Source: a virus
Length of the DNA stretch: 64,000 nt
Strand: one strand, 5' to 3'
Virus record (IMG/VR): IMGVR_UViG_3300008952_000003
Coordinates: 129,158-193,157 of that record
The translations under genes and the position numbers were made by a program. Of this stretch, positions 36,884-51,612 are shown piece after piece. Under the pieces are notes generated by a model that did no database searches, was not told where the DNA came from, and saw nothing but the letters and a program-made list of their open reading frames with translations. Within the stretch, counting starts at the first letter, position 1. Each line of letters begins with the position of its first letter.

Positions 36884-37081
36884 GTGACTTATAATACACT
36901 TGGCGAAGGCAATATGATATGGACAGTCATCTTTAAGACTCTCTGTGAGAAACCAGATAGTTGTGTGACTCTCGGGCCACCGTCAAGAACGAGATGCTGG
37001 AACCTTGCAAACCAAAAATATAACAAATTGATCGCAATCATACCAGGAAATCACGAAGTTTATATTAAAAATAACTCTTGA
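36884..37081 (+). CDS. small hypothetical protein
   Basis: ORF in operon. Confidence 0.5.
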   Translation: MTYNTLGEGNMIWTVIFKTLCEKPDSCVTLGPPSRTRCWNLANQKYNKLIAIIPGNHEVYIKNNS

Positions 37082-37132
37082 CATACTCTTGACAATTTAA
37101 CACTAGACAAAATCAGAAATAGCGTGTATAAT
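37076..37132 (+). promoter_or_regulatory. 57-bp early promoter module, copy 1
   Basis: TCTTGACA-TAC-TCTTGACA..TAGACA-17-TATAAT; drives tRNA. Confidence 0.85.
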
Positions 37133-37145
37133 GTATATACATAAT

Positions 37146-37221
37146 ACGCTAGTAGCTCAGGGGTGAGAGCAGTCGTCTTATATGCGATTGGTCGGTGGTT
37201 CAAATCCACCCTAGCGTACCA
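37146..37221 (+). tRNA. tRNA-Ile, anticodon UAU
   Basis: ACGCTAG/CTAGCGT acceptor, GCTC/GAGC D arm, loop CT-TAT-AT, GGTGG-TTCAAAT-CCACC T arm, A73, CCA; 76 nt. Confidence 0.93.
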
Positions 37222-37248
37222 TTTAACCCACAACCATAAAGGTAAATC

Positions 37249-37503
37249 ATGATTAAAACTTGTAAACACTGTGAAATAGAATTCAATGTCAACTCGCGCC
37301 AAAAGCGCCTCGTCGGAGGATACATTAATGAGTGTCCAGATTGCGTCGAGGAGCGAGGTGGTGATAACTCGGAGCCCAAACACTTCGGAGTGACCGGTTC
37401 ACTCGGTGACGATGTTTCGGTAGTTCGCTTTGATAGTCAAAAGAAGCGAGATCAATTCCAGAAAGAGTATGGAGAAATTAAAACCCTCAAAGACTTTTTC
37501 TAG
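37249..37503 (+). CDS. small Zn-ribbon protein
   Basis: CKHC...ECPDC. Confidence 0.7.
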   Translation: MIKTCKHCEIEFNVNSRQKRLVGGYINECPDCVEERGGDNSEPKHFGVTGSLGDDVSVVRFDSQKKRDQFQKEYGEIKTLKDFF

Positions 37504-37560
37504 TCTTGACATTCTCTTGACAATTTAACCATTGACTTAACCTTGAAAATCATGTATAAT
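37504..37560 (+). promoter_or_regulatory. 57-bp early promoter module, copy 2
   Basis: TCTTGACATTCTCTTGACAA..TTGACT-17-TATAAT. Confidence 0.9.
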
Positions 37561-37586
37561 TATTAGAAATCACACAGGAGCCTAAA

Positions 37587-38729
37587 GTGCTAAAATCAAA
37601 CCTATCTGTAGTACCCTCCGTCATCCCACCACTTCCACAGCAGTCCGCTATCCAGTGGGATACTTATCTTAAATCGTGCCCCACCCGACCAGCTCGGTGT
37701 CCGGTACGCGAACACGCCGGGATCAATGGCGGTATCGCAAAAGAATATTTAATAGATATTCACTTAATCGTAAAAGACCCTTACTATCAAAATCGCCTTC
37801 TCGGTGCCCTTGCGAACAAGATTAGTGAGTTAGCTAACCAACTCCACACTTGTCCAGAAGGGCTGAAAGTTGGTATCTGTGTGGCTCTTGGGCCCAACGG
37901 CGACCTTCTATTACGTTGGGGTAACCACCGACTTCGCGCAACTAAGCAAAACAATGGAAATAACTTAGCTATCCCTAACATGCCCGTAGGAAAAATCTGG
38001 GCTTCAATTTATGACTTTCCAACGTCACAGGTTCGCAAGTGGCAAGCTGTAGAAAATAACATACACGATGTCTCTAGTCCTGCTACAAAAGACGATAATG
38101 TACTTTCTTTGAAGGAAATGGTTGCCGCTGGCGAATTGGATACTTCTGCTTCCAAGTTTGTCGATTGCGACGACGAAGAAAAGGATAAGCGTTTAAAGAA
38201 GATTATTAAAGAAACGATGCCAAGTTGGTCGACCAAAATTAAACGTTTGATTAAGGAGTTTCGTCGCCAAAATACCAATGTTTATCGAGTGGAATCGTAT
38301 ACAGCCCGCGAAATGAAAACTTACTTTAAGAAAAACTGTCCACTTCACGGAGAACTTGATTTTAGCTCCTATTCGGAGAGTAATAAGAATATTATTAAGT
38401 CCACATTGCCAGATGGTTCAGTTCGTTCGAGCAAGATTGTATTTACTCATGCTGCCAGCGCAGACCTTGGCGGCGCAATCTTTCAAACTGCCATGCAAAA
38501 CAAATTTGTTGACGTAGACTGCGACGAAGTTGTCTTAGTAAGTTGTCATAGCGGCAAGGCTGAAGCTGGTTTGAACTCGACTCGAAAGGACCGAGAAACA
38601 TTAGTCCGAACTTGGAATTCGGCACTACCAGGCGGTTCTCATACAAGGTTGATTGATAGGATCTTCGTACTTCCGCAGACAACAGCGGAAAAGAAAGGTT
38701 CTAAGTTTATTTCTAAGAAGCCTCTATAG
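37587..38729 (+). CDS. ParB-like N-terminal domain protein (paralog of 16809-17936)
   Basis: WGNHRLRA, EN...SPATK shared with paralog. Confidence 0.6.
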   Translation: MLKSNLSVVPSVIPPLPQQSAIQWDTYLKSCPTRPARCPVREHAGINGGIAKEYLIDIHLIVKDPYYQNRLLGALANKISELANQLHTCPEGLKVGICVALGPNGDLLLRWGNHRLRATKQNNGNNLAIPNMPVGKIWASIYDFPTSQVRKWQAVENNIHDVSSPATKDDNVLSLKEMVAAGELDTSASKFVDCDDEEKDKRLKKIIKETMPSWSTKIKRLIKEFRRQNTNVYRVESYTAREMKTYFKKNCPLHGELDFSSYSESNKNIIKSTLPDGSVRSSKIVFTHAASADLGGAIFQTAMQNKFVDVDCDEVVLVSCHSGKAEAGLNSTRKDRETLVRTWNSALPGGSHTRLIDRIFVLPQTTAEKKGSKFISKKPL

Positions 38730-38780
38730 ACTACACTAGTACCAAGGGGCTGACTCCCCCTAACACCTTTCCATAAGGAC

Positions 38781-38837
38781 TCTTGACATTCTCTTGACAA
38801 TTTAACCATTGACTTTAACTTAAATAACGTGTATAAT
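38781..38837 (+). promoter_or_regulatory. 57-bp early promoter module, copy 3
   Basis: TCTTGACATTCTCTTGACAA..TTGACT-17-TATAAT. Confidence 0.9.
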
Positions 38838-38861
38838 GTATGTATAAATAGGGAGAGAGGC

Positions 38862-38886
38862 GCGGGTTCAAATCCTGTCACGACCA
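38862..38886 (+). pseudogene. tRNA 3'-half remnant
   Basis: GCGGG-TTCAAAT-CCTGT T arm then CACGACCA; no 5' half. Confidence 0.5.
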
Positions 38887-38965
38887 AGGGACCAGTTGTG
38901 AAGTGTTGCTAGGTGGCACGCTCGCCCTATTTATATCACCAATCAATTCAAACCAGGAGCCCAAA

Positions 38966-39130
38966 ATGCTGAACGACCCATCACTTCAAGACCTCATTCA
39001 AGAAACCATCGAAGAATATTATAAAGAAGAATATAATTACGGTTTAGATTATGACGAAATGCCAGAAGATTTAGAGGGCGAATGCCCCGAGTGGATTAAG
39101 GAACAACTTGATGACGACATCCCATTTTAA
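38966..39130 (+). CDS. small acidic hypothetical protein
   Basis: SD AGGAG before ATG 38966. Confidence 0.55.
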   Translation: MLNDPSLQDLIQETIEEYYKEEYNYGLDYDEMPEDLEGECPEWIKEQLDDDIPF

Positions 39131-39356
39131 ACAAGGAACACAAACAACACTGAAGCCCAATAAAGGGGCATCACAGCGGACCCGAAATCGTATTCGCGAA
39201 AAGGGTCCGTCTTTTATTGTCGAGCTTGAGGCGACAATGTTAACCAACACAGCCTCTTCAATTGATGGGAAAATTTGTGTTTGCTTTCGACAAATCGATG
39301 GTGATTGGTCGGGTTGGCTCCCCGTCGACGAGATTCACGCAATAACTTCACTATGA
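39108..39356 (+). CDS. small hypothetical protein
   Basis: overlapping operon ORF. Confidence 0.6.
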   Translation: MMTTSHFKQGTQTTLKPNKGASQRTRNRIREKGPSFIVELEATMLTNTASSIDGKICVCFRQIDGDWSGWLPVDEIHAITSL

Positions 39357-39367
39357 GAGAGAGCAGC

Positions 39368-39592
39368 ATGAAAAGACAATACTTCGAGCCAGGGCAAATT
39401 GTTCAGCTAGACCGCCCAGAATTGGGCGAGCGCGATACGTGGAGATTTATTGTTCTATCTTCGGGTCACAGTCGGTCGCGTCCACCTGGCCGATATTCTC
39501 TTTATTGCATTCGCGCCCCATCTTATCGTAAAGCAGACCTCAATACCATTCAGTATGTATCTGGTTGCAGCCTGCGAATAACGGAGGACTAA
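39368..39592 (+). CDS. small SH3/KOW-like array protein
   Basis: YFEPGQIVQL. Confidence 0.6.
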   Translation: MKRQYFEPGQIVQLDRPELGERDTWRFIVLSSGHSRSRPPGRYSLYCIRAPSYRKADLNTIQYVSGCSLRITED

Positions 39593-39595
39593 TAA

Positions 39596-39817
39596 GTGAA
39601 GTTTAAATCATCAGATTTTAGCAAGGGTCAATTTTATAAGTTGAAGACCCAATCCTTTATTATCTTGGATAAGGAATCAATAAGTGGGTGGTTCGACCGC
39701 ATCTCTGTGTACTTTGTCACGTGCAGAAACAAGCAGTTAAGAGGAAAGAAAAAAGAATTTACCAGTGGTGGTTTTGAAATTTACTTAAACAAGCTTTGCT
39801 CCAGCGAACATAAATAA
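39596..39817 (+). CDS. small SH3/KOW-like array protein
   Basis: DFSKGQFYKL. Confidence 0.55.
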   Translation: MKFKSSDFSKGQFYKLKTQSFIILDKESISGWFDRISVYFVTCRNKQLRGKKKEFTSGGFEIYLNKLCSSEHK

Positions 39818-40042
39818 AATGACCGAGGAGGTTACATAACTTGAAAGCGTAGCCCGTTGCTATATAGGGCTACCTCTTGATTCTAAGGGTTGGCGACAGC
39901 GCTGCTTCAGGCGCGGCGCATTATGAGCCTTCTATCTCCATTATCAAGGGGGCGCGCGCGAAGCGTCAACAAACAATTTATGTAGATAGGAAGCCGGATA
40001 TCCGAGCAAAACGGCATCGACCTCCTCGGTCATTTTATTTAT
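39810..40042. ncRNA. putative structured ncRNA closed by a 23-bp perfect inverted repeat
   Basis: 39810-39832 is the exact reverse complement of 40020-40042; nested stems inside; no ORF. Confidence 0.6.
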
Positions 40043-40047
40043 AATTC

Positions 40048-40104
40048 TCTTGACATTCTCTTGACAATTTAGTTCTTTACTTTCTCTCTAAAAGCGCGTA
40101 TAAT
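40048..40104 (+). promoter_or_regulatory. 57-bp early promoter module, copy 4
   Basis: TCTTGACATTCTCTTGACAA..TTTACT-17-TATAAT. Confidence 0.9.
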
Positions 40105-40130
40105 GTAAGTATACAAAAGAGAGTTGTGCC

Positions 40131-40379
40131 ATGCTAGACATCAATAACTTAAAGTCAGGGCAAATGGTGAGATACTCCTCAAAGATCTTTGATTCTGAGA
40201 AATCGGTAGAGTCTTTGTGGATATTGCTAGAGGAAGAACTCGGAGCCCATCCGCTGGGCCGCGCGTTCAAACTGTATCAAATATATGATAGTCAAAACTA
40301 TGTCGACCCCCAGTACATAACAGTTACTTACATTTTTAACTCACTCAACGCTAAAGATTTCACGCTGGAGGTGCCATGA
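40131..40379 (+). CDS. small SH3/KOW-like array protein (tandem paralog A)
   Basis: LKSGQMVRYS...VESLWILL. Confidence 0.65.
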   Translation: MLDINNLKSGQMVRYSSKIFDSEKSVESLWILLEEELGAHPLGRAFKLYQIYDSQNYVDPQYITVTYIFNSLNAKDFTLEVP

Positions 40380-40636
40380 TAGATATCAATAGCTTAAAGT
40401 CAGGGCAAATGTTAAGATATTCCGTAAAATTGTATGCATCGCAGGAACACGTTGAATCTTTGTGGATATTGCTGGGGGAAAGTAAAGCGCATGCGTTCTG
40501 CCGCCCCGGAGAAAGATTGTTCAAAATGTATCAAATATATGATAGCCACAATGACCTTTTCATCTTGCGTAATCGACCAACCGATTACATTTTTAACTCA
40601 AGTACCATTAAGAATTTTGTATTGGAGCCGGCATGA
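40376..40636 (+). CDS. small SH3/KOW-like array protein (tandem paralog B)
   Basis: LKSGQMLRYS...VESLWILL; clearly similar to 40131. Confidence 0.65.
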   Translation: MIDINSLKSGQMLRYSVKLYASQEHVESLWILLGESKAHAFCRPGERLFKMYQIYDSHNDLFILRNRPTDYIFNSSTIKNFVLEPA

Positions 40637-40845
40637 AAGATGAGCTTAAAGCAGGACAATTAAGAACTGTTCCACGTGGTGGGCTTGAGGGCGCAGTGGT
40701 TATTCTTTTGGATATACAGGAACACGCAAGAGTGTTGACCCCCAAGAATCAGATTTGGAACTCGATTATCGTCTTTTCACCCAGTCCATACTGGGAGCCT
40801 GGCGAGAAAATAGGTCTTCGTGGCATAGATTTGATGAACTGGTGA
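40633..40845 (+). CDS. small SH3/KOW-like array protein
   Basis: ELKAGQLRT. Confidence 0.55.
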   Translation: MKDELKAGQLRTVPRGGLEGAVVILLDIQEHARVLTPKNQIWNSIIVFSPSPYWEPGEKIGLRGIDLMNW

Positions 40846-40848
40846 GTT

Positions 40849-41082
40849 ATGGATTTCGAACCCGGCCAAGTCCTGAATCTATATAGTGGCTACGAGCAGA
40901 GCGCTGAAGAGGAGCTATTGTCATCCAGTATAATCGTGGAAGTTCGAGAGCACTCCCTGCTTCTGTTTAAATTTTATACTAGATTTCCAGACCCAACAGA
41001 GGGCGCCCTCGTACTTCAAGCTAAAGAATATATAGAAGAAGAGTGGGATAATAAATATTTCTATTGGAGAATAGAAAGTTAA
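40849..41082 (+). CDS. small SH3/KOW-like array protein
   Basis: DFEPGQVLNL. Confidence 0.55.
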   Translation: MDFEPGQVLNLYSGYEQSAEEELLSSSIIVEVREHSLLLFKFYTRFPDPTEGALVLQAKEYIEEEWDNKYFYWRIES

Positions 41083-41086
41083 TTCT

Positions 41087-41143
41087 TCTTGACATTCTCT
41101 TGACAATTTAGTTCTTTACTTTCTCTTCGAAAGCGTGTATAAT
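41087..41143 (+). promoter_or_regulatory. 57-bp early promoter module, copy 5
   Basis: TCTTGACATTCTCTTGACAA..TTTACT-17-TATAAT. Confidence 0.9.
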
Positions 41144-41168
41144 GTATATATAGAATGGAGTTTACCCT

Positions 41169-41771
41169 ATGTCAGAACAAGCCAAAAGACTAGATGCCTT
41201 CCTGAACAACAACAGTATTTCTGCCTCTGAACGCTCTTTTGGGGCCTCCCTAAAAAAGAGTGTTACAAACTACGGAAAGATGACAGAGCGCCAGTGGAGT
41301 GCTTTTCAGCGCATGGAGGCGCGCCATAGCCCCGAAGTCAAGGCCGCTCGAAAACAATGGGAGCAAGACTGGACCGAGGAGAAGGCCAAGAATCTCCGAA
41401 CCGCCGCCGAATACTATCTATGTAATCCTCCATACTTCGGAGAGGCAGCCCGAACAATTATCGCAGACCCCACCTACATTCCAAGTCAAAAATTGTATCA
41501 TAAGATGGTAGAGAATAAGTATGTTCAGAAGGTTTTAACGACACTCGCCACAGAGCCGCTCTATCCAGTTGGCAGTCTTGTCCAGGTCAGAAAGACCGCC
41601 AGAGAATATGCGTACAAGCTCCGCGACCGCCAGGCGCTAGTTGTAATGAATGACGGCGTAGTCAAGTCAGCCGCCAAGGGCGCCCGAACTTACACAATTC
41701 TTCCATTCGGAGAATCAGGCACCATCACCATCGAAGAACGCTGGCTCAAGAGAGCCCCGAGGGCTAAATGA
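41169..41771 (+). CDS. hypothetical early protein with C-terminal SH3-like segment
   Basis: YPVGSLVQVRK near C-terminus. Confidence 0.7.
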   Translation: MSEQAKRLDAFLNNNSISASERSFGASLKKSVTNYGKMTERQWSAFQRMEARHSPEVKAARKQWEQDWTEEKAKNLRTAAEYYLCNPPYFGEAARTIIADPTYIPSQKLYHKMVENKYVQKVLTTLATEPLYPVGSLVQVRKTAREYAYKLRDRQALVVMNDGVVKSAAKGARTYTILPFGESGTITIEERWLKRAPRAK

Positions 41772-42025
41772 GCACCCATCTATCCCCGAATCCGGGAGAT
41801 ATCCTTGAGGAGAACTGCCCCAGAAGTGATTTCAGGGCAAGATATATTGTTTTATCTATTATCCAAGATAAGCATGCCCCTACTCATGGAAATTCTTACA
41901 AGTTGTACACCTTGTTTGTCGAGTCTCCGTGCCCATCGGATAGGGATTTGCAGGGTACAATCGACACCGTATACAATCTGGAAATAAACAACACCGACCA
42001 CGACGAATGGCGTATCATCTCTTGA
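41768..42025 (+). CDS. small SH3/KOW-like array protein
   Basis: PNPGDILEE...RYIVL. Confidence 0.55.
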   Translation: MSTHLSPNPGDILEENCPRSDFRARYIVLSIIQDKHAPTHGNSYKLYTLFVESPCPSDRDLQGTIDTVYNLEINNTDHDEWRIIS

Positions 42026-42076
42026 CATTCTCTTGACAACTTTTCTCTTTACTTTCTCTTGAAAAGCGTGTATAAT
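42020..42076 (+). promoter_or_regulatory. 57-bp early promoter module, copy 6
   Basis: TCTTGACATTCTCTTGACAA..TTTACT-17-TATAAT. Confidence 0.9.
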
Positions 42077-42124
42077 GTATATGTAAGTTAGAGATTCGCC
42101 TACAAACTTTTTGGAGCTATCACA

Positions 42125-42919
42125 ATGGCATACACAAGAAACTACAAAAGAACCGTCCGATGCTCATACTGCGGAGATTCCGGTCACAACCGCTCATCAT
42201 GCTCAAACCTGAAAGAGCATATTGAAAAACTACGCGCCGAACACGGCGACGAGCATTATACCGTTCGAGTCCATGACCGCAAGAAAGCAAAACGGAAGGC
42301 CAGCGGAAAGAGTCGCAAGTGTTCATACTGCGACGAAGGCGGCCACAACCGCGCAACCTGTTCGCACTTGAAAGAGCACATGGCTGAAACCAGAGCTAAA
42401 AACTCTGAATTCAGGAAGGCTGTTTATAGGCACCTGTGCCGCCTGGGAATAGGCGTTGGGGCCATAGTTTCGAGCGACACCCACCAGAATCGTATCGATC
42501 CAGACAACTTTGAGAGTGCGCGCTACCGAGTTCCGCAGATTGTAACAGATATAAATTGGCTCGGAATCAACGTATGGAACCGCGAAGTTTGGTATTTTGA
42601 CAGTTCCTCCTCGGGCCACACTGGCGACCGCCCAGCACCTCTTTTCGTCGTTCCTATGGGGAACCTCGGCGCCTACAACTGGAAGAATGTAATGGGCTAC
42701 CCGTTCGATGAGGAGCTTTTAAAGCTGTTTTTGAACGAGCGTCTTTTGGGAGAGCTAAAGGACGGCTCTCACTGGCGTGCTAATGAGAAGGAAAACCACT
42801 TCTTAACTATTGAATCACCCGTTCCGCCCACTGCCCCACCTAAAGGCTGGTTTAGTTCCAAGGACAAGAAAATTAAAGAGATTTACAAGCGCCGAAAGAG
42901 TTGGCAAGGGGCTTTATAA
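42125..42919 (+). CDS. protein with two CCHC zinc knuckles
   Basis: CSYCGDSGHNRSSC and CSYCDEGGHNRATC (CX2CX4HX4C). Confidence 0.85.
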   Translation: MAYTRNYKRTVRCSYCGDSGHNRSSCSNLKEHIEKLRAEHGDEHYTVRVHDRKKAKRKASGKSRKCSYCDEGGHNRATCSHLKEHMAETRAKNSEFRKAVYRHLCRLGIGVGAIVSSDTHQNRIDPDNFESARYRVPQIVTDINWLGINVWNREVWYFDSSSSGHTGDRPAPLFVVPMGNLGAYNWKNVMGYPFDEELLKLFLNERLLGELKDGSHWRANEKENHFLTIESPVPPTAPPKGWFSSKDKKIKEIYKRRKSWQGAL

Positions 42920-42925
42920 GCCCTT
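42906..42925 (+). terminator. hairpin, possible terminator
   Basis: AAGGGGCT-TTATA-AGCCCTT at the ORF end. Confidence 0.45.
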
Positions 42926-42931
42926 TATCAC

Positions 42932-42988
42932 TCTTGACATTCTCTTTACAATTAAAGTATTGATTTATGTTCTAAAAGCGTGTATAAT
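42932..42988 (+). promoter_or_regulatory. 57-bp early promoter module, copy 7
   Basis: TCTTGACATTCTCTTTACAA..TTGATT-17-TATAAT. Confidence 0.85.
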
Positions 42989-43033
42989 GTATATATAAGT
43001 TAGAGAAACAACACAACAACCTGGAGACTTAAT

Positions 43034-44188
43034 ATGTCTATTGCTATCACATTCGCAAACCTCAATTCCATGATTCCAACACTCCTTTCGGGAGACGAAA
43101 AAGACCTTTATTCAGTTCTTATTCGCGGCCGCCACGGCATCGGGAAATCATGGGTTGCTTATCAAACTGCTGCCGGCCTCACTTGGGACGCCTCGGAAAA
43201 CAAGACGCGTCCGCTAAGAGGGAGCGAAAAAGCCCTCCCAGTGGTTGAGATTCGCGCCTCCCAAATGACCGAGGGCGACCTTCTCGGCCTCCCTTCTCCT
43301 CATGAAGTCGACATTAACGGAGAAAAAGCAGCTTCGTTGCGTCCTTTCGCGTGGCTTGTTAAAGCCTGTACCGAGCCCGTTGTCCTTTTCCTTGATGAAG
43401 TTGACCGAGCCACAACGGAGGTTCGCCAGGGCTTCTTTCAGCTTGGTGATAGTCGTCAAATTAACGGCTGGAAACTTCATCCTGGCACTGTTGTTTTTGG
43501 CGCGGTAAATGGAGGAGTTCATGCTGCACAATATCAGGTAGCTGATATGGACCCCGCAGAGCTTGACCGCTGGGTTACGTTTGACGTCGAGCCATCTATC
43601 GAAGATTGGCTCGCTTGGGGCAAATCCGAAGTTCATTCTATTATCTGGGATTTTGTCAATCAAAACCATGATCATCTTGAGCACAAGGGGGAATTCGAGC
43701 CGGGCACCGTGTACCCTTCGCGCCGCTCGTGGCATCGCTTGAGCAATACTCTTGCAAAAGTTGATATGCTCGACGAAGAGAGTCCAAATCTGGGGCTGCT
43801 ATTCAATCTCTCTCATGGGTTCGTCGGCTTTGAGGCCGCCGTAGCCCTCCGTGATTTTGTTGAGAATTACGAGCGCCAAGTCACTGTTGAGGACATCTTG
43901 GTCCATGGCAGAATAGATAAAACCAAGGACTTCGGACTTGTCGACCACGTGGCCCTCATCGAAAAGATTGACGCAAGTGGGGTTTTCGCCGCAGCAATTG
44001 AGAATTCGAAAATGATCAACTTGGTCGATTACTTCGATGCACTCCCAGCAGAGGCCCGCATGAAACTGTTTACAACCCTGACCGCAGCTAACAGCCAGGT
44101 ATCCGCCGAGAATGGAGCGAACTTCCACCGCGAACTGGCCAAGCAAGGCAAAGTGGAAGCATTTATCAAGCTTCTTGGTGGAAAATAA
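43034..44188 (+). CDS. MoxR-like AAA+ ATPase
   Basis: Walker A GRHGIGKS, Walker B LFLDEVDR, GAVN, DPAELDRW, SRRSW. Confidence 0.88.
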   Translation: MSIAITFANLNSMIPTLLSGDEKDLYSVLIRGRHGIGKSWVAYQTAAGLTWDASENKTRPLRGSEKALPVVEIRASQMTEGDLLGLPSPHEVDINGEKAASLRPFAWLVKACTEPVVLFLDEVDRATTEVRQGFFQLGDSRQINGWKLHPGTVVFGAVNGGVHAAQYQVADMDPAELDRWVTFDVEPSIEDWLAWGKSEVHSIIWDFVNQNHDHLEHKGEFEPGTVYPSRRSWHRLSNTLAKVDMLDEESPNLGLLFNLSHGFVGFEAAVALRDFVENYERQVTVEDILVHGRIDKTKDFGLVDHVALIEKIDASGVFAAAIENSKMINLVDYFDALPAEARMKLFTTLTAANSQVSAENGANFHRELAKQGKVEAFIKLLGGK

Positions 44189-44211
44189 GAGAGTGTGATA
44201 GCAAAGGTTGC

Positions 44212-44250
44212 AGCGCTGGCGTCGGTTGGTTGTTATCCGACGCTAGCGCT
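44212..44250 (+). terminator. 14-bp hairpin, probable terminator
   Basis: AGCGCTGGCGTCGG / CCGACGCTAGCGCT followed by a pyrimidine tract. Confidence 0.65.
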
Positions 44251-44257
44251 CCCTTTC

Positions 44258-44314
44258 TCTTGACATTCTCTTGACAATTTAATCCTTTACTTTTGCGCTA
44301 AAAGCGTGTATAAT
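44258..44314 (+). promoter_or_regulatory. 57-bp early promoter module, copy 8
   Basis: TCTTGACATTCTCTTGACAA..TTTACT-17-TATAAT; leader to ATG identical to copy 5. Confidence 0.9.
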
Positions 44315-44339
44315 GTATATATAGAATGGAGTTTACCCT

Positions 44340-45674
44340 ATGACACCGACACCCTTTAATCTTGACGAACATATTGTTGGCCTTCTCCGAGACGAGCCCT
44401 TCTTCGCCGCCCTCTCGCGCCGCATGGAAAAGGTGGCATCGAGGTCAGTTCCTACGGCTGGAGTAGCTTTTAATGAGGAGCGCGCCCGGTTTGAGCTATA
44501 CTATAATCCCGAATTCATGGCAGACATGCTCTCGCAAGATAAGAAATATGTTAAGGGCATTCTTTTACACGAGTTCTATCATATCATGCTTTTACACGTA
44601 ACTTCTCGCATGCCCGAAGGCAAGATGACGAGAAAGTGGAATATCGCTACTGACCTCGCCATTAACAGCGAGCTATCTGTGTTTGCGGCTAACAGCGAAA
44701 CTCCAACTGGGTACGCCGTTGAAAGCTCGCTCTTGCCGCTCGATAAAGCGCTAATTCCCACTGTTGGGCCATTTTCCGAACTGAAGCCACATCTTTCGGC
44801 TGAAGAGTATATGGTTTTATTACCAGAATCCCCAGAGCAAGATAATAATCCAGCCGACGGCCCCGGCGAGCCCGGTGACGATTCTGACTCCGATGGTCCC
44901 GGCAACCCAAGCGACGGCGATGGTGGTTCGTCACCAAGCGACCAGGAAGGCGACGAACAAGGAGGAGAGGGAAGTGGAGACGGCAACGGCTTCGATGATC
45001 ATTCTGATTGGGGTTCTTCCGATGGTTCCGACGAGAATCGAAAAATAGCCGAAGAGAGACTAAAAGAAGCCATCAAGGAGGCATATGTCGAGGCCCAGTC
45101 TCGCGGTTTTGGTTCGGTTTCTGCTAGCATGAGGCGCACAATTAAGGATGTTATAACTCCCAAGGTAAACTGGCGCTCAATCCTGCGCTCTTTCGTCAAG
45201 GCTTCGCAGAGAGCAGATAGAACCTCAACTATCAAGCGCCTGAATCGCCGATACGCTTACATTCATCCAGGCCGCAAGGCAAAGCGTCAAGCTAAAATCG
45301 CGGTTTCAATTGACCAATCTGGCAGTGTTTCCGATGGCATGCTCGTTGCATTTTATGCAGAGCTTGAAAAGCTGGCAACCATCGCTGATTTTACGATTGT
45401 CCCCTTTGATACCGAGGTTGCAGAAGAGCACATCCATGTTTGGAAGAAGGGCGCCCGCCACGAAAAGACTCGCTATAAGCATGGTGGAACCTGCTTCAAC
45501 GCTCCAACCAGGTGGGTCAACGAGAATAACTTTGATGGTCACATTGTCCTGACTGATATGGAGGCTCCAAAGCCCATTCCTAGCAAGTGTCAGCGTATGT
45601 GGATGACAACCAAGGCGCATGCAGAACGCCCTTACTTCCAGACCAATGAGCGAGTGATAGCAATCAATGACTGA
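44340..45674 (+). CDS. DUF2201-like metallopeptidase plus vWA-like domain protein
   Basis: LLHEFYH, NIATDLAIN, acidic G/D/S linker, SIDQSGS MIDAS, GGTCF, LTD. Confidence 0.85.
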   Translation: MTPTPFNLDEHIVGLLRDEPFFAALSRRMEKVASRSVPTAGVAFNEERARFELYYNPEFMADMLSQDKKYVKGILLHEFYHIMLLHVTSRMPEGKMTRKWNIATDLAINSELSVFAANSETPTGYAVESSLLPLDKALIPTVGPFSELKPHLSAEEYMVLLPESPEQDNNPADGPGEPGDDSDSDGPGNPSDGDGGSSPSDQEGDEQGGEGSGDGNGFDDHSDWGSSDGSDENRKIAEERLKEAIKEAYVEAQSRGFGSVSASMRRTIKDVITPKVNWRSILRSFVKASQRADRTSTIKRLNRRYAYIHPGRKAKRQAKIAVSIDQSGSVSDGMLVAFYAELEKLATIADFTIVPFDTEVAEEHIHVWKKGARHEKTRYKHGGTCFNAPTRWVNENNFDGHIVLTDMEAPKPIPSKCQRMWMTTKAHAERPYFQTNERVIAIND

Positions 45675-45903
45675 TAGATACCTTAAAATCAGCAATATCG
45701 AATCTTTAAAAGCTGGAGATATTCTCTGTCTTCCTATGAAGGGAGAGCTAGGTGAGTGGTCGAGGCTTGTTGTATACGAGGTTACGAAAAGGTTGTTGAA
45801 AACTTATGTATTGCTTGACCAAGCTGGTGGCTGGGCTCCAGGAGATATGTATAGTTTCCAGTTAATTGGCTTCGACCCTGCGAATTGGAGGCTACTAGCA
45901 TGA
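45667..45903 (+). CDS. small SH3/KOW-like array protein
   Basis: SLKAGDILCL. Confidence 0.55.
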   Translation: MTDRYLKISNIESLKAGDILCLPMKGELGEWSRLVVYEVTKRLLKTYVLLDQAGGWAPGDMYSFQLIGFDPANWRLLA

Positions 45904-46127
45904 TTCTTGAGTCTGGAACTATAATCGAGGAAATCTCGGATGGTCAAGTCGATATCCGGTGCCTGGTGTTGGAGTACGAAAAACATCCAACGGTTCGAGA
46001 CTTGGGAACGTATGTTTTATATGTGATATATTCAGGCAATACATACGCGCTCCCCGGCGAGACGATGGTGGTCAGGAGTACCCTTGTTGAATCTACGCAT
46101 GCAAATTATCACTGGAGGATAATCTAA
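45900..46127 (+). CDS. small SH3/KOW-like array protein
   Basis: ILESGTIIEE. Confidence 0.55.
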   Translation: MILESGTIIEEISDGQVDIRCLVLEYEKHPTVRDLGTYVLYVIYSGNTYALPGETMVVRSTLVESTHANYHWRII

Positions 46128-46378
46128 TGAAGTTTAAACCTGGAAATTTATTGAAGCACGAGAGGTCTTCCGGGCTCTGGATTGTCGTTGAGGCGCTCCC
46201 AATAAATAAGAAGGGCTCGCCTCACCGCCCGACCGTCTTTAGGCTCCAGATGACTGCCACTTGTGTCCAGCCCGGTACTTCAAACCTCCACTATCCTGGG
46301 AGCAGCGATACCTGGCTTTTCAAGGAGAAAGATGGAAGCGACCATAACGATATGTGGAAGGTGATAAATGAAATTTAA
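46127..46378 (+). CDS. small SH3/KOW-like array protein
   Basis: MKFKPGNLLKH. Confidence 0.6.
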   Translation: MKFKPGNLLKHERSSGLWIVVEALPINKKGSPHRPTVFRLQMTATCVQPGTSNLHYPGSSDTWLFKEKDGSDHNDMWKVINEI

Positions 46379-46613
46379 AGTCGGAGATTTAATAACTCAC
46401 AAGCCTTTGGGTGGTAATACCGCCGTTGATGCGATTATCTTGAAGCACTGGCAAACTGAAACACCAGGAATGGGCGCCCAACAAAAGACGCAGCGCGTTG
46501 ATAACGTGCATTTATTCATAACTTTCGACGAGGCTGACCCGACTGCAGTTGGCGATATTGACGTGATGTGCGGTTTCCGAGAGCAGCATTGGAGCTTAAA
46601 AAATGGAGTTTAA
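46368..46613 (+). CDS. small SH3/KOW-like array protein
   Basis: MKFKVGDLITH; similar to 46603 (KHW, DNV.LF.T.D). Confidence 0.6.
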   Translation: MKFKVGDLITHKPLGGNTAVDAIILKHWQTETPGMGAQQKTQRVDNVHLFITFDEADPTAVGDIDVMCGFREQHWSLKNGV

Positions 46614-46824
46614 AGCTGGAGATATTGTAGTTTATAAACAGGACGGCAAATCGTCAATTGAGGGCATTGTCGTCAAGCACTGGAAAGGGCCAAACCCGTG
46701 GGTAGCGGGAACCATTGATAATGTAGATTTATTCGTAACTTTGGATACGACCTGGCCTTCTAAGCTTCATAAAATTGAGACGTTTAGAAATTTTAGTACC
46801 CAGATTTGGGAGGTGAAAACATGA
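46603..46824 (+). CDS. small SH3/KOW-like array protein
   Basis: MEFKAGDIVVY. Confidence 0.6.
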   Translation: MEFKAGDIVVYKQDGKSSIEGIVVKHWKGPNPWVAGTIDNVDLFVTLDTTWPSKLHKIETFRNFSTQIWEVKT

Positions 46825-47048
46825 AAAAGGGCGACCTAATTCAGCTTCGAACCTCGGTTGCCGCGCGCCGCTGCAGGGGGATTGTATTGGAAGACGCCCC
46901 AAAAGATGCCAATTTTAGAACGAGAATCGCGGTGTATATGTTTTACGTTCCATCCTGGAACAACCTTAAATCAGGGGAAATTTGGGACATCCCCCTGAAC
47001 AAGCTAGGCAAGCAATATGAGATTTTGGGTAAAATCGAAACTATCTAA
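46821..47048 (+). CDS. small SH3/KOW-like array protein
   Basis: MKKGDLIQL. Confidence 0.6.
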   Translation: MKKGDLIQLRTSVAARRCRGIVLEDAPKDANFRTRIAVYMFYVPSWNNLKSGEIWDIPLNKLGKQYEILGKIETI

Positions 47049-47051
47049 GGT

Positions 47052-47321
47052 GTGAAAAAGAGATATCTCCCAGGTCAAATAGTGAGTTTTATGAGGACTG
47101 GGGCTATATATTTGTTAATTGAGGAAGTGGAGATATCAATGCTTTCACCTCATTTTTTTAAAGGAACTGGTCAGGGGTTTAGAGCTAGAATTCTCTATAC
47201 AGGAAGAACCTGGTCGAAACCAGGCGAAGAAAGGGAGATATTCATCCTGCACGCATCATCTTATTACGAGATTTTATCGGACGTCGCCCCAGCCGCGCCC
47301 GCCCAGATAGTTGGTGATTAG
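47052..47321 (+). CDS. small SH3/KOW-like array protein
   Basis: YLPGQIVSF. Confidence 0.6.
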   Translation: MKKRYLPGQIVSFMRTGAIYLLIEEVEISMLSPHFFKGTGQGFRARILYTGRTWSKPGEEREIFILHASSYYEILSDVAPAAPAQIVGD

Positions 47322-47359
47322 CGCGTTTCGCGCGATTTTTTTCCGCTAAATTTTTTTTT
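47321..47359 (-). repeat. A-tract/CGCG intergenic motif, copy 1 (inverted relative to 56436)
   Basis: minus strand reads A9-TTTAGCGG-A7-TCGCGCGAAACGCGC. Confidence 0.55.
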
Positions 47360-47374
47360 CAACAGGATCACATT

Positions 47375-47632
47375 GTGAAGTTTAAACCAGGAAATATCAT
47401 CGAACATTGCCCCACCAAAACAAGATGGATTGTGCTCTCTGCAGAGAATGTCGAGAAAAGAACAGGAATAAACAGCGCTTATAAGCTAGAAGTCGAAGCT
47501 TATTGCGTCTATTTGGGAAAACACAAGAGGGCAATTAAATATTGGGAAGTTAATCAGCGTGATACCTTTGTTTTGACACAGCAAGATTTAAATCCGAGTG
47601 ACTTTGTATGGGAGGTTAGGAATGAAGTTTAA
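47375..47632 (+). CDS. small SH3/KOW-like array protein
   Basis: MKFKPGNIIEH; similar to 46127. Confidence 0.6.
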   Translation: MKFKPGNIIEHCPTKTRWIVLSAENVEKRTGINSAYKLEVEAYCVYLGKHKRAIKYWEVNQRDTFVLTQQDLNPSDFVWEVRNEV

Positions 47633-47813
47633 ACCAGGACAATTGGTGAGAAAGAAAGCGAGAAAAGGAGATCCAGACGCAATCTATTATGTATTGGACA
47701 CGAACTATCCTAAAATGCTGATTCATTGTGTTGAATCACTCTTTGATTTTATACAGGGGGAAGCCTATGAAGTCTGTGTTGGTGAGTGTGAATTGTTGAT
47801 GGATTACCGATGA
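47622..47813 (+). CDS. small SH3/KOW-like array protein
   Basis: MKFKPGQLVRK. Confidence 0.6.
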   Translation: MKFKPGQLVRKKARKGDPDAIYYVLDTNYPKMLIHCVESLFDFIQGEAYEVCVGECELLMDYR

Positions 47814-48055
47814 CCTCGAAACCCGCGAAGATTAGGCTTGAAGCGGGGGATATCGTAACTCTCGATTATGCCCGCGACAAGCCAAAGGGAGACGCGCCAT
47901 TATTCATAACGCTAGATGATCCGCCCTCGGTACACTATTCGGTGAATGTTTACTGCTTTTATAGCCCAGATCCAGGGTATGGGTACACGAATGCTGCTTG
48001 GCTTCATACAATTTTTGACATTTCCCAGAGCAGGTTAATAAAAGTTAATTATTGA
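47810..48055 (+). CDS. small SH3/KOW-like array protein
   Basis: RLEAGDIVTL. Confidence 0.55.
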   Translation: MTSKPAKIRLEAGDIVTLDYARDKPKGDAPLFITLDDPPSVHYSVNVYCFYSPDPGYGYTNAAWLHTIFDISQSRLIKVNY

Positions 48056-48076
48056 AAAAGTTTTTCTATTTACAAT

Positions 48077-48343
48077 GTGAGCGACTTCTTTCCAGGTGAT
48101 TTCATAGAGGAAACCATCGATAATAGAATAGTTGGCTATTATATAGTATTAACCAGGCATTATTTAAACGGTTGCAAAGAGGATGGCATGATTTTGGGAT
48201 ATTACACTTTAATAGTATATAGTACAGGACACGCATTGCCAACTCATTCTCCAGGATCAAACTGGTTTATCAAGCACTCTGATTTACAAAAATCCGATTT
48301 CAGAGTGGTATCCAGTGGCAAATTGTTGTGTCAAAGTCAATAA
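48077..48343 (+). CDS. small SH3/KOW-like array protein
   Basis: FFPGDFIEE...YYIVL. Confidence 0.55.
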   Translation: MSDFFPGDFIEETIDNRIVGYYIVLTRHYLNGCKEDGMILGYYTLIVYSTGHALPTHSPGSNWFIKHSDLQKSDFRVVSSGKLLCQSQ

Positions 48344-48642
48344 TAGAAATCAATCCGGGTGACATTGTGGCGGAGATACTTGGCGGAGAAGAGACGGGCC
48401 GATATATTGTCACGAGCAGAAGATTCGTGCGAGACCACACATTAAGAGAATATGTCATGTATGAGGCGATTATTATATATATAACTGATGAATGGACAGA
48501 CTTTCATAAGCCGGGTGATAAGTGGTCATTCGAATTGTATTCAGACGGGCACAGTATACAGGACGTTAGTTTCGGATCTTACACCTACAAAGTCCTGTTT
48601 AGAAGCTCGTTAACGTGGAAAGACATAGAAGTCATGGAATAA
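48328..48642 (+). CDS. small SH3/KOW-like array protein
   Basis: INPGDIVAE...RYIV...LTWKD. Confidence 0.6.
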   Translation: MSKSIIEINPGDIVAEILGGEETGRYIVTSRRFVRDHTLREYVMYEAIIIYITDEWTDFHKPGDKWSFELYSDGHSIQDVSFGSYTYKVLFRSSLTWKDIEVME

Positions 48643-48650
48643 ACACGCTA

Positions 48651-48989
48651 ATGACATTTGACGCAAAAACATTTAAAAAGAGCATCAGAAGGGGTGATAT
48701 CCTCGTTGAAAAGTACAAACTAACAAAGCACGGACATCGAGAAGTGGTTAGCATATATCTAGTATTAAACAGGCATATGGAGAGTGAACCCATGGTCGAT
48801 GGATACGAGAGAACACTTTTTTATAAAACCTATTTAATGTACGTTAATACTCGACAATGGTCATCAGGAGAGAAAAATCTGGTTGGAACGATATACTATT
48901 TATCAGAGCATGAAATCAGTGACCATCACAATTGGGAAAAACTGTTTGAATCTGGTTTATCATGGAATGATTCTTATCCGAGGACATAA
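48651..48989 (+). CDS. small SH3/KOW-like array protein
   Basis: IRRGDILVEK...ESGLSWND. Confidence 0.6.
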   Translation: MTFDAKTFKKSIRRGDILVEKYKLTKHGHREVVSIYLVLNRHMESEPMVDGYERTLFYKTYLMYVNTRQWSSGEKNLVGTIYYLSEHEISDHHNWEKLFESGLSWNDSYPRT

Positions 48990-48997
48990 AAAAGAAA

Positions 48998-49276
48998 ATG
49001 AAAATTGATGAGTTATCTCCAGGGGATATAGTAAGAGAGAAGGACGGCGATGAAGAAATAGCTCGTTATATAGTAATAAACAGGCATATCCAGCACCCAG
49101 GCGCACAATATTATTATGTCGAATATGATTGTATAATATTGTACTATAATGGTAAGTTATACCAGAGACCTGAAAAGGTAGGAACATGGTGGATAATTGA
49201 TTCAATCAATCTTAATAGTCCCAGAGAGAACTGGGAAATTGTGGTAGAAAGTGGGTTATCGTGGGATGATGATTAA
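48998..49276 (+). CDS. small SH3/KOW-like array protein
   Basis: LSPGDIVRE...RYIV...ESGLSWDD. Confidence 0.6.
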   Translation: MKIDELSPGDIVREKDGDEEIARYIVINRHIQHPGAQYYYVEYDCIILYYNGKLYQRPEKVGTWWIIDSINLNSPRENWEIVVESGLSWDDD

Positions 49277-49522
49277 TATCACAAAACGTAGATTAAAATA
49301 AGGGAATAATAGAATCACAATAGGCATGGAAGAAATAGGGGAATCACGGTGAGGATCTAGTACGTTGTAACTAGAATGTCAAGCGCCATTATTGTGAAGA
49401 TTCTGTCAATTCTTCATATATTTACTTGACAAATGTAAACACGCTTATATACCCCCTTATCGCAATCACAGTACTCATATCGAGTGATTAATCATATGCC
49501 ACCATCAAACACACTAATCGCG

Positions 49523-49556
49523 TGTCAAGTATTTAATTGTCAAAAGAATGTCAAGT
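49523..49556 (-). promoter_or_regulatory. minus-strand copy of the three-box module without a recognisable -10
   Basis: TGTCAA at 49523, 49538, 49549 (15 and 11 bp spacing). Confidence 0.7.
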
Positions 49557-49576
49557 GAAGATAAACAAGATTCCCC

Positions 49577-49606
49577 TTGACATTTCCCCCAATATCATGG
49601 TATACT
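49577..49606 (+). promoter_or_regulatory. sigma70-type promoter
   Basis: TTGACA-18-TATACT with TGn. Confidence 0.65.
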
Positions 49607-49622
49607 AGTATTATAGGAGAGA

Positions 49623-49763
49623 ATGATGGAAGCACTATTACGCAATATACTCCTGCTTTTTGGAGTGTTGTTCATAATTGACTTTGTAACTGAATATCCA
49701 AAGACATTCGATAATGTCGATGAAACCGTTGAAAACATTAAAGCCAAATTTGGCAGTAAATAA
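49623..49763 (+). CDS. small membrane protein (46 aa)
   Basis: SD AGGAG; one TM helix. Confidence 0.6.
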   Translation: MMEALLRNILLLFGVLFIIDFVTEYPKTFDNVDETVENIKAKFGSK

Positions 49764-49773
49764 GGAGATTATC

Positions 49774-49860
49774 ATGCCATCACGATTTACCGACATTGTA
49801 ATAGTGATATCACTCGCGTATCTTGTGGGTTTTGCATTGTATGCTTACATACTAGCTTAA
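49774..49860 (+). CDS. membrane micro-peptide (28 aa)
   Basis: SD AAGGAG; hydrophobic. Confidence 0.55.
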   Translation: MPSRFTDIVIVISLAYLVGFALYAYILA

Positions 49861-49966
49861 TCACAAAACACGTCAAACGCACAAATCTGACAGAAAATTC
49901 GGAGAGCCTATAAGAATATAAATATTATGTCCTCGGTCATATAGAGGGTTATAACACGAATATCAC

Positions 49967-50023
49967 TCTTGACATTCTCTTTACAATTAAGTGATAGACT
50001 TCAAACGCTATCGGGTGTATAAT
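49967..50023 (+). promoter_or_regulatory. 57-bp early promoter module, copy 9
   Basis: TCTTGACATTCTCTTTACAA..TAGACT-17-TATAAT. Confidence 0.85.
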
Positions 50024-50051
50024 TGTATTATAAGTCAGAGGAGCGACCCAC

Positions 50052-50243
50052 ATGAATAAAAAACGCCGTTCATATCGTCCACGCAAGCCGGCCCGCACGC
50101 CTTGGATTGTCTGTTGGACTCACAACACAACAGGATTCGCAGACGCGTCGACTGTGTACGCGAAAGACGAGGAACAAGCTAAGCTTTTGGCGTCTAACGG
50201 TTACACCTCGAACATCACAATTACCAGCGTTTATCGCGCTTAA
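50052..50243 (+). CDS. small hypothetical early protein
   Basis: SD GAGGAG. Confidence 0.65.
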   Translation: MNKKRRSYRPRKPARTPWIVCWTHNTTGFADASTVYAKDEEQAKLLASNGYTSNITITSVYRA

Positions 50244-50266
50244 TCACCCCAGTATAGGATAATAAT

Positions 50267-50662
50267 ATGAAAGATATCAGATTAATGATTGCAGAAAAAA
50301 TGGACGATATGCTTGACGAGCTTTTGTCAGACCTCGCGTACGACTTAGACCTGGATGATGCCGATTTGGATTACGACGTTAAACAGGATGTAAGTGATGA
50401 ATGGGGCACCATGGTCGATAAAATCACTGAAGCTGTTGAGAATCACGTTCAGGCAGTTGTCGAGGTTAAAACAGAGCAATTGCTTGAAGAGTGGAAAGGG
50501 TGGTCATTGCCTATTATCAAGAAAGAATGCGAACAAGATGGCGTCATGGACGGGCCAGCGCGCCGAGAGGATTGGTGCAATTTCGTCGACGCAAAGCAGA
50601 AAAACGGTGAAATCTCCGATTTTGTCGCTGAACTCGTGGATGCTGACGTTGAGAGTGTATAA
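50267..50662 (+). CDS. acidic hypothetical protein
   Basis: D/E-rich; REDWCNFVDA C-terminal motif. Confidence 0.65.
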   Translation: MKDIRLMIAEKMDDMLDELLSDLAYDLDLDDADLDYDVKQDVSDEWGTMVDKITEAVENHVQAVVEVKTEQLLEEWKGWSLPIIKKECEQDGVMDGPARREDWCNFVDAKQKNGEISDFVAELVDADVESV

Positions 50663-50754
50663 TGAATGACTCAATATTGGACTTTCTTGGCCTATTATCA
50701 ATCTTCGCAACCTGTTATTTCCTGCTAATCGCATCACAACTCATCGGAGCATAA
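50662..50754 (+). CDS. membrane micro-peptide (30 aa)
   Basis: ATG overlaps upstream TAA; hydrophobic. Confidence 0.5.
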   Translation: MNDSILDFLGLLSIFATCYFLLIASQLIGA

Positions 50755-50756
50755 TT

Positions 50757-51026
50757 ATGTTTGACCCACACGCAATCGGACCTTTTGCAGAATCCCAAAC
50801 CAAGGCTTTAAGCTTCATTACGAGCCTTATCGTTAATACTGCAGTCACCGAGACTCTTAAAGTCATGGATGATATGCAGTTAGAAGGCAAACAATTGCTT
50901 AAAGAACTTCGAAGTTCCGAGGGCAATAAAAAAGAAGAAGTAAAAGCAGCTTTGAAACTGCACATTAAAGACTCTAAACTCTTGCTTGAAACCATTATGA
51001 TGAACCCAATCGAAAAGGATGCTTAA
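50757..51026 (+). CDS. small hypothetical protein
   Basis: operon ORF. Confidence 0.6.
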   Translation: MFDPHAIGPFAESQTKALSFITSLIVNTAVTETLKVMDDMQLEGKQLLKELRSSEGNKKEEVKAALKLHIKDSKLLLETIMMNPIEKDA

Positions 51027-51029
51027 ACC

Positions 51030-51299
51030 ATGCGTATTGAAAACTATAAATCAAATCAAACTATCGTTCACACTAACACTTATACCGCTCTCTTGAGCTA
51101 TGGAGTCCCTCAAGTTGTTGTTTGTAACCCAGATATGCCATCGCTTGGTAATACTGTGCTTGTGAATAATAAGAAATACTCAAACACTACTTCGAAGCAC
51201 CGCAATGCTTATTTGCGTCAATTGTGTGATCGTTCATATACTATCATCGAAGCAACCCCCGCAGAGATTCAAGAAGTCACCGGCCTAGAAACCCGATAA
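51030..51299 (+). CDS. conserved small phage protein
   Basis: LLSYG...KYSNTTSKHRN motif typical of phage early ORFs. Confidence 0.65.
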   Translation: MRIENYKSNQTIVHTNTYTALLSYGVPQVVVCNPDMPSLGNTVLVNNKKYSNTTSKHRNAYLRQLCDRSYTIIEATPAEIQEVTGLETR

Positions 51300-51310
51300 T
51301 GGAGGACACT

Positions 51311-51457
51311 ATGAATATCGAGTTAACACCTGAAGAATTGGACGTTCTACGTCACGCACTCAAAGTCGAGATATCCTCCTTTAAAGGCGAGGAATTGGAA
51401 GACCCCGATCTTCAAGCTCTCTTCTCCCTCGTTCGCAAGTTAGAAGGTGCAGAATGA
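51311..51457 (+). CDS. small hypothetical protein (48 aa)
   Basis: SD GGAGG. Confidence 0.6.
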   Translation: MNIELTPEELDVLRHALKVEISSFKGEELEDPDLQALFSLVRKLEGAE

Positions 51458-51546
51458 CAAACACACGAAAGGTACTTATAATCGCACATATCGCTGACTG
51501 TGCATGCTGGGCGTCATTGGGCTTTCTAATAGGACAATTGATTTAG
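51454..51546 (+). CDS. membrane micro-peptide (30 aa)
   Basis: ATGA overlap with upstream gene; hydrophobic. Confidence 0.45.
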   Translation: MTNTRKVLIIAHIADCACWASLGFLIGQLI

Positions 51547-51583
51547 CCGAGGGCCTAACAAATAAATAAACCCATATCAGAAT

Positions 51584-51612
51584 AAGCCAGGTAACCCCTG
51601 GCTTTTCTTTTG
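51584..51612 (+). terminator. intrinsic terminator
   Basis: AAGCCAGG-TAACC-CCTGGCTT followed by TTCTTTT. Confidence 0.8.

Follow-up and report, generated by a model that had tools for sequence, protein, structure and literature searches.

Here we report that a noncoding element of an uncultured marine phage, located between two early gene blocks at positions 39820-40042 (+ strand) of the 64,000-nucleotide stretch of DNA under analysis (hereafter, the window), is, judged by sequence comparison, a real and conserved folded RNA in which five supported helices are arranged in a multi-way junction. Our preferred reading, to which we give about an even chance of being right, is that it belongs to an uncatalogued family of structured RNA modules whose closing stem and U-rich tail terminate or process early transcripts. 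An earlier note on this DNA had proposed a novel phage noncoding RNA, and a structured family with comparative support for its fold and no match in Rfam is in agreement with that proposal.

The window makes up the final 64 kb of an IMG/VR virus record of 193,157 bp, which is rated complete. Nearly all genes of the record, and every neighbor of the element, are on the + strand, to which all coordinates below refer unless indicated otherwise. The gene set includes a DnaB-like helicase, a DnaE-type polymerase, a class II ribonucleotide reductase, a chaperonin and a short PurA-like enzyme. The latter, a protein of 333 amino acids encoded at 13664-14665, matches adenylosuccinate synthetase (8e-83) and is far shorter than bacterial PurA; one possibility is a PurZ-type enzyme, which marks phages that swap adenine for 2-aminoadenine. 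A tmRNA (59099-59441; 119 bits) and a tRNA (37146-37218) both exceed the Rfam gathering scores. There is no close cultured phage in GenBank: the replicative DnaE polymerase is <30% identical to that of any GenBank phage, searches of GenBank phages by blastn with 2 kb and with a 200-amino acid protein discussed below gave no match, and the local genes are without a match there. Related contigs originate from seawater, sponge and other marine metagenomes, and the element is carried by a clade of uncultured marine phages whose genomes measure about 190 kb. Loci on the contigs of these related phages are given as L-numbers, with L044 being L022 reversed.

In the window, the element occupies the gap between the stop codon (39815-39817) of an early ORF of 73 amino acids (39596-39817), homologues of which are 84-90% identical in relatives and which has no match in Pfam or PHROG, and an early promoter cassette (40048-40104). 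The latter is composed of two TTGACA-type boxes followed by a -35 element, 17 nucleotides and a -10 element, and precedes the first gene of the next early block (82 amino acids; 40131-40379 in the ORF list). The box pair is present in 11 copies within the 64-kb window, compared with 0 expected. Cassettes are positioned at 37076, 37504, 38781, 40048, 41087, 42020, 42932, 44258, 49967 and 51630, with one further cassette on the - strand at 49533, so that at least 10 repeats span 37076-51653. The promoter cassette is kept in all related contigs, and the gene content between cassettes varies strongly among relatives. Upstream of the other cassettes in the window there are ordinary small hairpins followed by T-rich sequence, and the element is found at only one of the at least 10 cassettes. 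It lies directly 5' of an early promoter cassette in 8 of 10 copies, including the copy in the window, but not in L068/L070. About 4 kb upstream of the element site in relatives, a gene of 119 amino acids matches Pfam Acb5 (L027:62-421 and the homologous position in others), a hint of anti-defence genes in the early region.

The earlier note had described a perfect 23-bp inverted repeat with nested helices inside. The repeat is exactly as claimed, with 39810-39832 and 40020-40042 complementary at 23 of 23 positions across 187 intervening nucleotides, and the chance expectation for such a repeat is about 3e-7 (64-kb window, spacing of up to 300 nucleotides). On the + strand, the whole 233 nucleotides fold at -93.7 kcal/mol (z = -6.3; 0 of 200 shuffles as good), compared with -81.4 kcal/mol (z = -4.5) on the - strand. 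By contrast, the inner 187 nucleotides alone are unexceptional by energy (z = -1.4 on the + strand and +1.3 on the - strand). The energy signal of the single sequence is thus that of the closing stem, and comparison was needed for the other helices. Only the inner 13-15 bp of the repeat are shared by the family, whereas the outer 10 bp (39810-39819) correspond to the region around the stop codon of the 73-amino acid gene and occur also in relatives without the element.

Ten distinct copies were compared, namely those of the window, L023, L044, L010, L042, L043, L045, L063, L068 and L069, which are 72-98% identical and are all on the coding strand of related marine phage contigs. The five helices termed P1, P2, P3, P5 and P6 were set on a 7-copy alignment, after which a covariance model was built. 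In the 10-copy alignment, which was fitted to this model, 97.9% of the cells of the five helices are paired, compared with 90.7% in shuffles and 29-46% in slid controls. Twelve pairs have changed on both sides in this alignment, mostly through a single diverged lineage (L063, L068 and L069), compared with 6.1 in shuffles and 0-2 in slid controls, and 0 of 500 shuffles reach either of the two observed values. An earlier set of 8 copies contained 11 double-changed pairs, compared with 2.6 in shuffles. Six of the covarying pairs are in P1, where covariation alone would also be expected of the terminal repeats of a transposon; two each are in P2 and P3, and one each in P5 and P6, so that covariation among homologues is present in the interior helices as well. 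When run without structural input, MAFFT aligned the covarying columns of P2, P3 and P6 identically. A competing structure from RNAalifold, which combines a local hairpin with a helix between the segments S1 and S2 described below, was rejected for its lower score on L063, the most diverged copy, which had been held out (161 bits, compared with 179 bits for the model containing P3, a difference of 18 bits in favor of the latter). The multibranch fold suggested earlier for the window is therefore conserved among 10 copies and backed by compensatory changes.

The closing stem P1 pairs 39820-39833, the left edge of the element at which homology across sites starts, with 40019-40032. Among the 10 copies, 6 of its 14 pairs have changed on both sides and 99.3% of cells are paired. 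Within P1, the P2 hairpin (GTAGCCC/GGGCTAC; 39849-39873) has a 7-bp stem, paired in 100% of cells, and a near-invariant loop of 11 nucleotides, and its outer two pairs covary, one from G-C to C-G and the other from U-A to U-G to C-G. P3 (CCTCTTGAT/ATCAAGGGG) pairs 39874-39881 with 39943-39950 and includes two pairs that went from U-A to U-G to C-G in separate lineages. The GC hairpin P5 (39951-39967) alternates between G-C and A-U at one pair and between G-U and G-C at another. P6 (GCCG/CGGC; 39993-40015) has a 4-bp stem and a conserved loop of 15 nucleotides, with C-G, U-G, U-A or G-C as its second pair depending on the copy. These four hairpins and helices had been named in the earlier note and are supported by the nine other copies. 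More generally, all of the nested helices of that note are present in the window and 4 of 5 recur in relatives; the part that failed is an 11-nucleotide helix inside the stem (39833-39843 with 39974-39984), which breaks and was discarded since, by our reading rather than by a count, it is not kept in the diverged copies L045 and L063. A second GC hairpin of the note, P4 (39899-39919), is enclosed by P3 and forms 4-7 bp in every copy, but its sequence and length differ among copies.

Two further segments are conserved with little variation. S1 (39927-39941) is a near-invariant pyrimidine-rich block with two possible partners. Local pairing with a purine run at 39889-39900 is found in 90.9% of cells, which is no better than in shuffles. 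Pairing with S2 (39968-39992), a nearly invariant 25-nucleotide segment that is unpaired in the supported model, would form a pseudoknot across P3 and is possible in 98.9% of cells, a value that carries no covariation signal, as the two segments are nearly invariant. Immediately after P1 there is a U-rich tail (40033-40042; 8 U of 10), which accompanies the element to other sites and is U-rich in all copies, if less so in L068 and L069 (6 of 10). In the window, the tail also pairs with 39810-39819 to form P0, a lineage-specific outer extension of the stem made of native gene-end sequence that is unchanged in the empty sites of L009 and L027-L041. Consequently, the stem measures 23-24 bp in the window lineage and 13-15 bp in other copies. 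P0 was rejected as a leader-trailer helix of the whole family because it is strong in the window lineage and L069 only.

Several features around the arms were noted in passing. A leader of 16 nucleotides just 5' of P1 (L010:9183-9198; also L042, L043, L045 and L069) is shared by copies situated behind the gene of the 200-amino acid protein, even where the upstream gene differs. The heptamer UUUAAAC, located 7 nucleotides before P1 in these copies, was dismissed as a frameshift site because it is downstream of the stop codon, and a resemblance of the arms to Shine-Dalgarno and anti-Shine-Dalgarno sequences was dismissed because it is not kept in L045, L063, L068 and L069. Stand-alone hairpins with a stem and loop resembling P6, followed by a T-run, were observed at L074:1480-1560 (G003:42077-42105) and G005:189822-189850. 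They look like ordinary terminators related to part of the element, and there are none in the window's own genome.

Regarding the strand, G-U cells are frequent in the alignment and A-C cells are rare, and a G-U pair would read as an A-C mismatch on the other strand. Moreover, the + strand folds better than the - strand by 7.7-18.2 kcal/mol in 8 of 8 copies tested. Together with the + orientation of the neighbors and the lack of conserved frames, this places the constraint on a + strand RNA. The noncoding character claimed in the earlier note is borne out, given that no reading frame is conserved and that indels are of 1, 2 and 4 nucleotides rather than multiples of three. It is hence hardly credible that the locus is a small protein gene. 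Two candidate ORFs exist, one of 55 amino acids on the + strand (39877-40044) and one of 36 amino acids on the - strand (40017-39907), the latter preceded by a Shine-Dalgarno-like run within the arm. However, the longest frame shifts in phase and length between copies, the start codon on the - strand is lost in L010, and the longest ORF, used as a query among 5.8 billion proteins, retrieved no resembling protein.

The same strand asymmetry bears on the possibility that the repeat acts as a DNA palindrome in replication, recombination or protein binding, for example as an origin, a hot spot or an operator, which we consider very improbable. The perfect 23-bp repeat, its AT-rich flanks and the adjacent strong promoters would suit such a role, and a matched change from A-T to G-C at one P0 position of L044 could stem from template switching in a quasi-palindrome. 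Nevertheless, tolerance of G-U on one strand and the better + strand fold in every copy tested point to RNA, and the outer 10 bp of the repeat are confined to one lineage. A 187-bp spacer, as found here, disfavors cruciform extrusion. Finally, the element is optional and its positions are variable, which argues against an essential origin.

Filled and exact empty sites are both found among relatives, so that the presence/absence polymorphism named as a check in the earlier note does exist. An exact empty site is present in at least 11 relatives (L009, L027-L035 and L037-L040; also L036 and L041). In L009, the gene end is joined straight to the cassette, with about 226 nucleotides absent from just after 39819, and 13 further loci from three sequence lineages have this junction too. 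The position that the element occupies in the window is filled in L023 and in L022/L044. L023 (filled) and L037 (empty) encode an identical 73-amino acid protein and are 97.5% identical in their upstream flanks, and between the window and L023 identity amounts to 98.2% in the element, 91% in the flanking gene, 91% in the cassette and 73% in the downstream gene. The occurrence of filled and empty sites in closely related backgrounds implies that the element was gained or lost recently.

A second type of site is located behind the 200-amino acid gene. In L010, L042, L043 and a second, truncated copy of L044, the element is situated between this gene and the cassette of a zinc-finger gene; L045 and L063 have one or two small genes between the 200-amino acid gene and the element; and in L068/L070, the element lies between a gene of the 200-amino acid family and an ORF of 80 amino acids, with no cassette directly after it. 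Homology between the two site types starts exactly at 39820 and continues through the U-rich tail into the cassette. Behind the 200-amino acid gene, the identity of the element falls with that of the gene (from 93% down to 72%), and in 14 of 15 pairs it is higher than the nucleotide identity of the gene. The element has thus co-diverged with the gene, yet more slowly, as expected for long vertical retention under constraint. Comparison of the sequences fits retention behind the 200-amino acid gene under purifying selection, and the site in the window looks like a later, secondary location. In ENA contigs encoding protein P0005, the gap before a gene of 199 amino acids is 288 nucleotides, compared with 74 nucleotides in close relatives, and might mark one more place at which the element inserted.

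L044 contains one copy per site type, 2.3 kb apart (766-988 and 3048-3075). Its window-type copy follows a gene of 80 amino acids that shares only the last 45 nucleotides or so with the 73-amino acid gene, so that the upstream gene end is chimeric, and precedes a paralogue of the 200-amino acid gene. The joint movement of about 45 nucleotides of left flank and of the right cassette with the element indicates recombination rather than cut-and-paste. Spread between genomes therefore probably proceeds by recombination in flanking gene ends and promoter cassettes, and not by transposition.

These observations also weigh on the suggestion of a MITE-like insertion made in the earlier note, that is, a nonautonomous DNA transposon with terminal inverted repeats for transposase binding and a passenger interior, which we now regard as improbable. 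Terminal inverted repeats of 13-15 bp in 10 of 10 copies, the sharp left boundary, exact empty sites and more than one insertion context would all be expected of such an element. However, no direct target duplication is seen at any site, either between filled and empty sites or between the two site types, and the genome contains no Y1 transposase, the one transposase family searched. Six virus records, including two rated complete, contain 1-2 copies each, with a single copy in the window's own genome, and two conserved-block patterns detected no copy in 185,579 prokaryote (GTDB) species genomes. The interior is structurally constrained, with covarying helices whose wobble pairs fit one strand only, and neither the co-moving flanks of L044 nor the co-divergence of copies with the 200-amino acid gene conforms to transposition. 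A search of viral contigs with an exact 17-mer of the arm gave five matches, all by chance and in coding starts, and among 12 matches of a stem-plus-gap pattern in metagenome contigs, only L022 and L023 were real.

Concerning function, the element probably ends or processes an early transcript, leaving a compact RNA. It would form the 3' end of the transcript of the upstream early operon, and the GC-rich P1 with the adjoining U-rich tract would stop or attenuate RNA polymerase before the next cassette. Alternatively, or additionally, P1 may serve as a double-stranded processing stem. In either case, the early transcript would end in, or release, a compact and nuclease-resistant RNA of about 200 nucleotides, the conserved unpaired blocks of which would be free to bind a partner. 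In the window lineage, the element may have arrived next to the stop codon of the 73-amino acid gene, where its U-rich tail would pair with the A-rich gene end and lengthen the stem to 23 bp. With the stop codon inside the lengthened stem, translation of the 73-amino acid gene could, speculatively, modulate folding.

A role as a terminator or attenuator is suggested by the combination of P1 with the U-tract, by the position before a promoter, by the hairpins at other cassettes and by the known layout of early promoter stem-loops in other phages (see below). Against termination, L068/L070 have no cassette, and complete termination at this site would leave the downstream ORF unexpressed; in addition, the closing stem encloses about 185 nucleotides in place of a textbook loop, and the U-tract is weak in L068 and L069. 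A possible, if doubtful, alternative is that P1 is mainly a processing site for an excised trans-acting RNA of about 200 nucleotides, a decoy, sponge or anti-defence RNA, with termination being secondary. Processing accounts better than termination for the intercistronic position in L068/L070, and the 5' and 3' ends are joined by a stem of 14-15 bp (23-24 bp in the window lineage). Sequence-specific recognition is suggested by the near-invariant S1, S2 and P2 and P6 loops, and the element resides in a variable early region with an Acb5-family gene about 4 kb upstream in relatives. On the other hand, a stem of 14 bp, about the length in most copies, offers RNase III little length for efficient cleavage. 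A search of the phage genome for targets complementary to the conserved blocks gave only chance-level 11- to 12-mers, and no partner gene co-occurs consistently, as the neighbors differ between sites. We think it rather unlikely that the element represents a new class of phage RNA that is cut from early transcripts and acts in trans via its unpaired blocks, for instance as a decoy for a host defence or RNA-binding protein, and that, as an RNA gene complete in itself and free of protein genes, is transferred from one phage genome to another. The terminator and the processing or released-RNA readings are not exclusive of each other.

Annotation usually depicts phage genomes as an unbroken series of protein genes, and structured phage RNAs with comparative support are few. 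The element described here comprises about 220 nucleotides, with five helices supported by covariation and long invariant single-stranded blocks, and it has long been kept beside one gene family while also being copied to new sites. Should it prove to be a terminator, an entire functional RNA domain can be accommodated within a terminator stem. As an excised RNA, it would constitute an RNA-only accessory gene in the early region devoted to host takeover, in which anti-defence functions are concentrated. Apart from its function, our comparison documents, for phages outside the T4 group, that regulatory modules are shuffled at repeated cassettes of early promoters.

Of the known RNA families, including tRNA, tmRNA, 6S RNA, Y RNA/YrlA, RNase P, SRP and self-cleaving ribozymes, none matches the element, in accordance with the earlier note: in Rfam 15 at E ≤ 10, three copies were used as queries, of which those of the window and L010 gave no match and that of L063 gave one chance-level match of 15 bits. 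The roles considered in the note (sponge, antitoxin mimic, 6S-like) find no support in our data. The fold is a multi-way junction rather than a 6S-like rod with a bubble, and there are no ToxI-like tandem repeats. Three further candidates were removed on the basis of genes missing from the phage: a retron by the lack of an RVT_1 (reverse transcriptase) match in the whole 193-kb genome, a REP/REPIN-type element by the lack of Y1_Tnp in the genome, in addition to the single copy of the element, and a Y RNA by the lack of a Ro/TROVE gene in the genome. As a conserved multi-helix RNA from uncultured marine sequence only, the element resembles the orphan structured RNA motifs of marine and phage metagenomes in Rfam, from which it differs in that no Rfam 15 model matches it.

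Other comparisons concern its layout. The Correia elements of Neisseria and the MPME of mycobacteriophages are likewise small and intergenic, have terminal inverted repeats, show presence/absence polymorphism and possibly have terminator activity; unlike these, the element has no target duplication, multi-copy spread or matching transposase, and its interior is under an RNA-type constraint. A long duplex flanking a structured RNA in an intercistronic or operon-end position is reminiscent of the RNase III stems of T7 early mRNA and of rRNA leader-trailer helices. However, the stem of most copies is shorter than two helical turns, and each T7 RNase III site consists of one hairpin interrupted by an internal loop rather than of the closing stem of a multi-way junction. 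With intrinsic terminators, the element shares a GC-rich stem of 13-15 bp with a U-rich tract immediately 3' of it, and in the window an A-rich run upstream mirrors the U-tract as in bidirectional terminators. It differs in enclosing about 185 nucleotides of conserved, independently folded RNA instead of a loop of 3-8 nucleotides and in its interrupted U-tract, and a scan of the window with a consensus terminator pattern did not call it.

The PeSL (promoter-early stem-loop) cassettes known from T4-type phages (Arbiol 2010, PMC2839356; Comeau 2014, PMC4122927) provide a further comparison. PeSLs are short simple hairpins at many cassettes, whereas the element is a 220-nucleotide, five-helix domain with covariation and invariant blocks. 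It accompanies only one or two of the cassettes of a genome, and one lineage lacks a promoter downstream of it. The phages studied here, with their DnaE-type replicative polymerase, are also not T4-like. Nonetheless, in both cases the early region is hypervariable and contains a stem-loop just 5' of a repeated, sigma-70-like early promoter, together with an AT-rich stretch, and in both the stem-loop is tied to indels and gene swaps between close relatives, with exchange apparently occurring by recombination in the repeated cassette.
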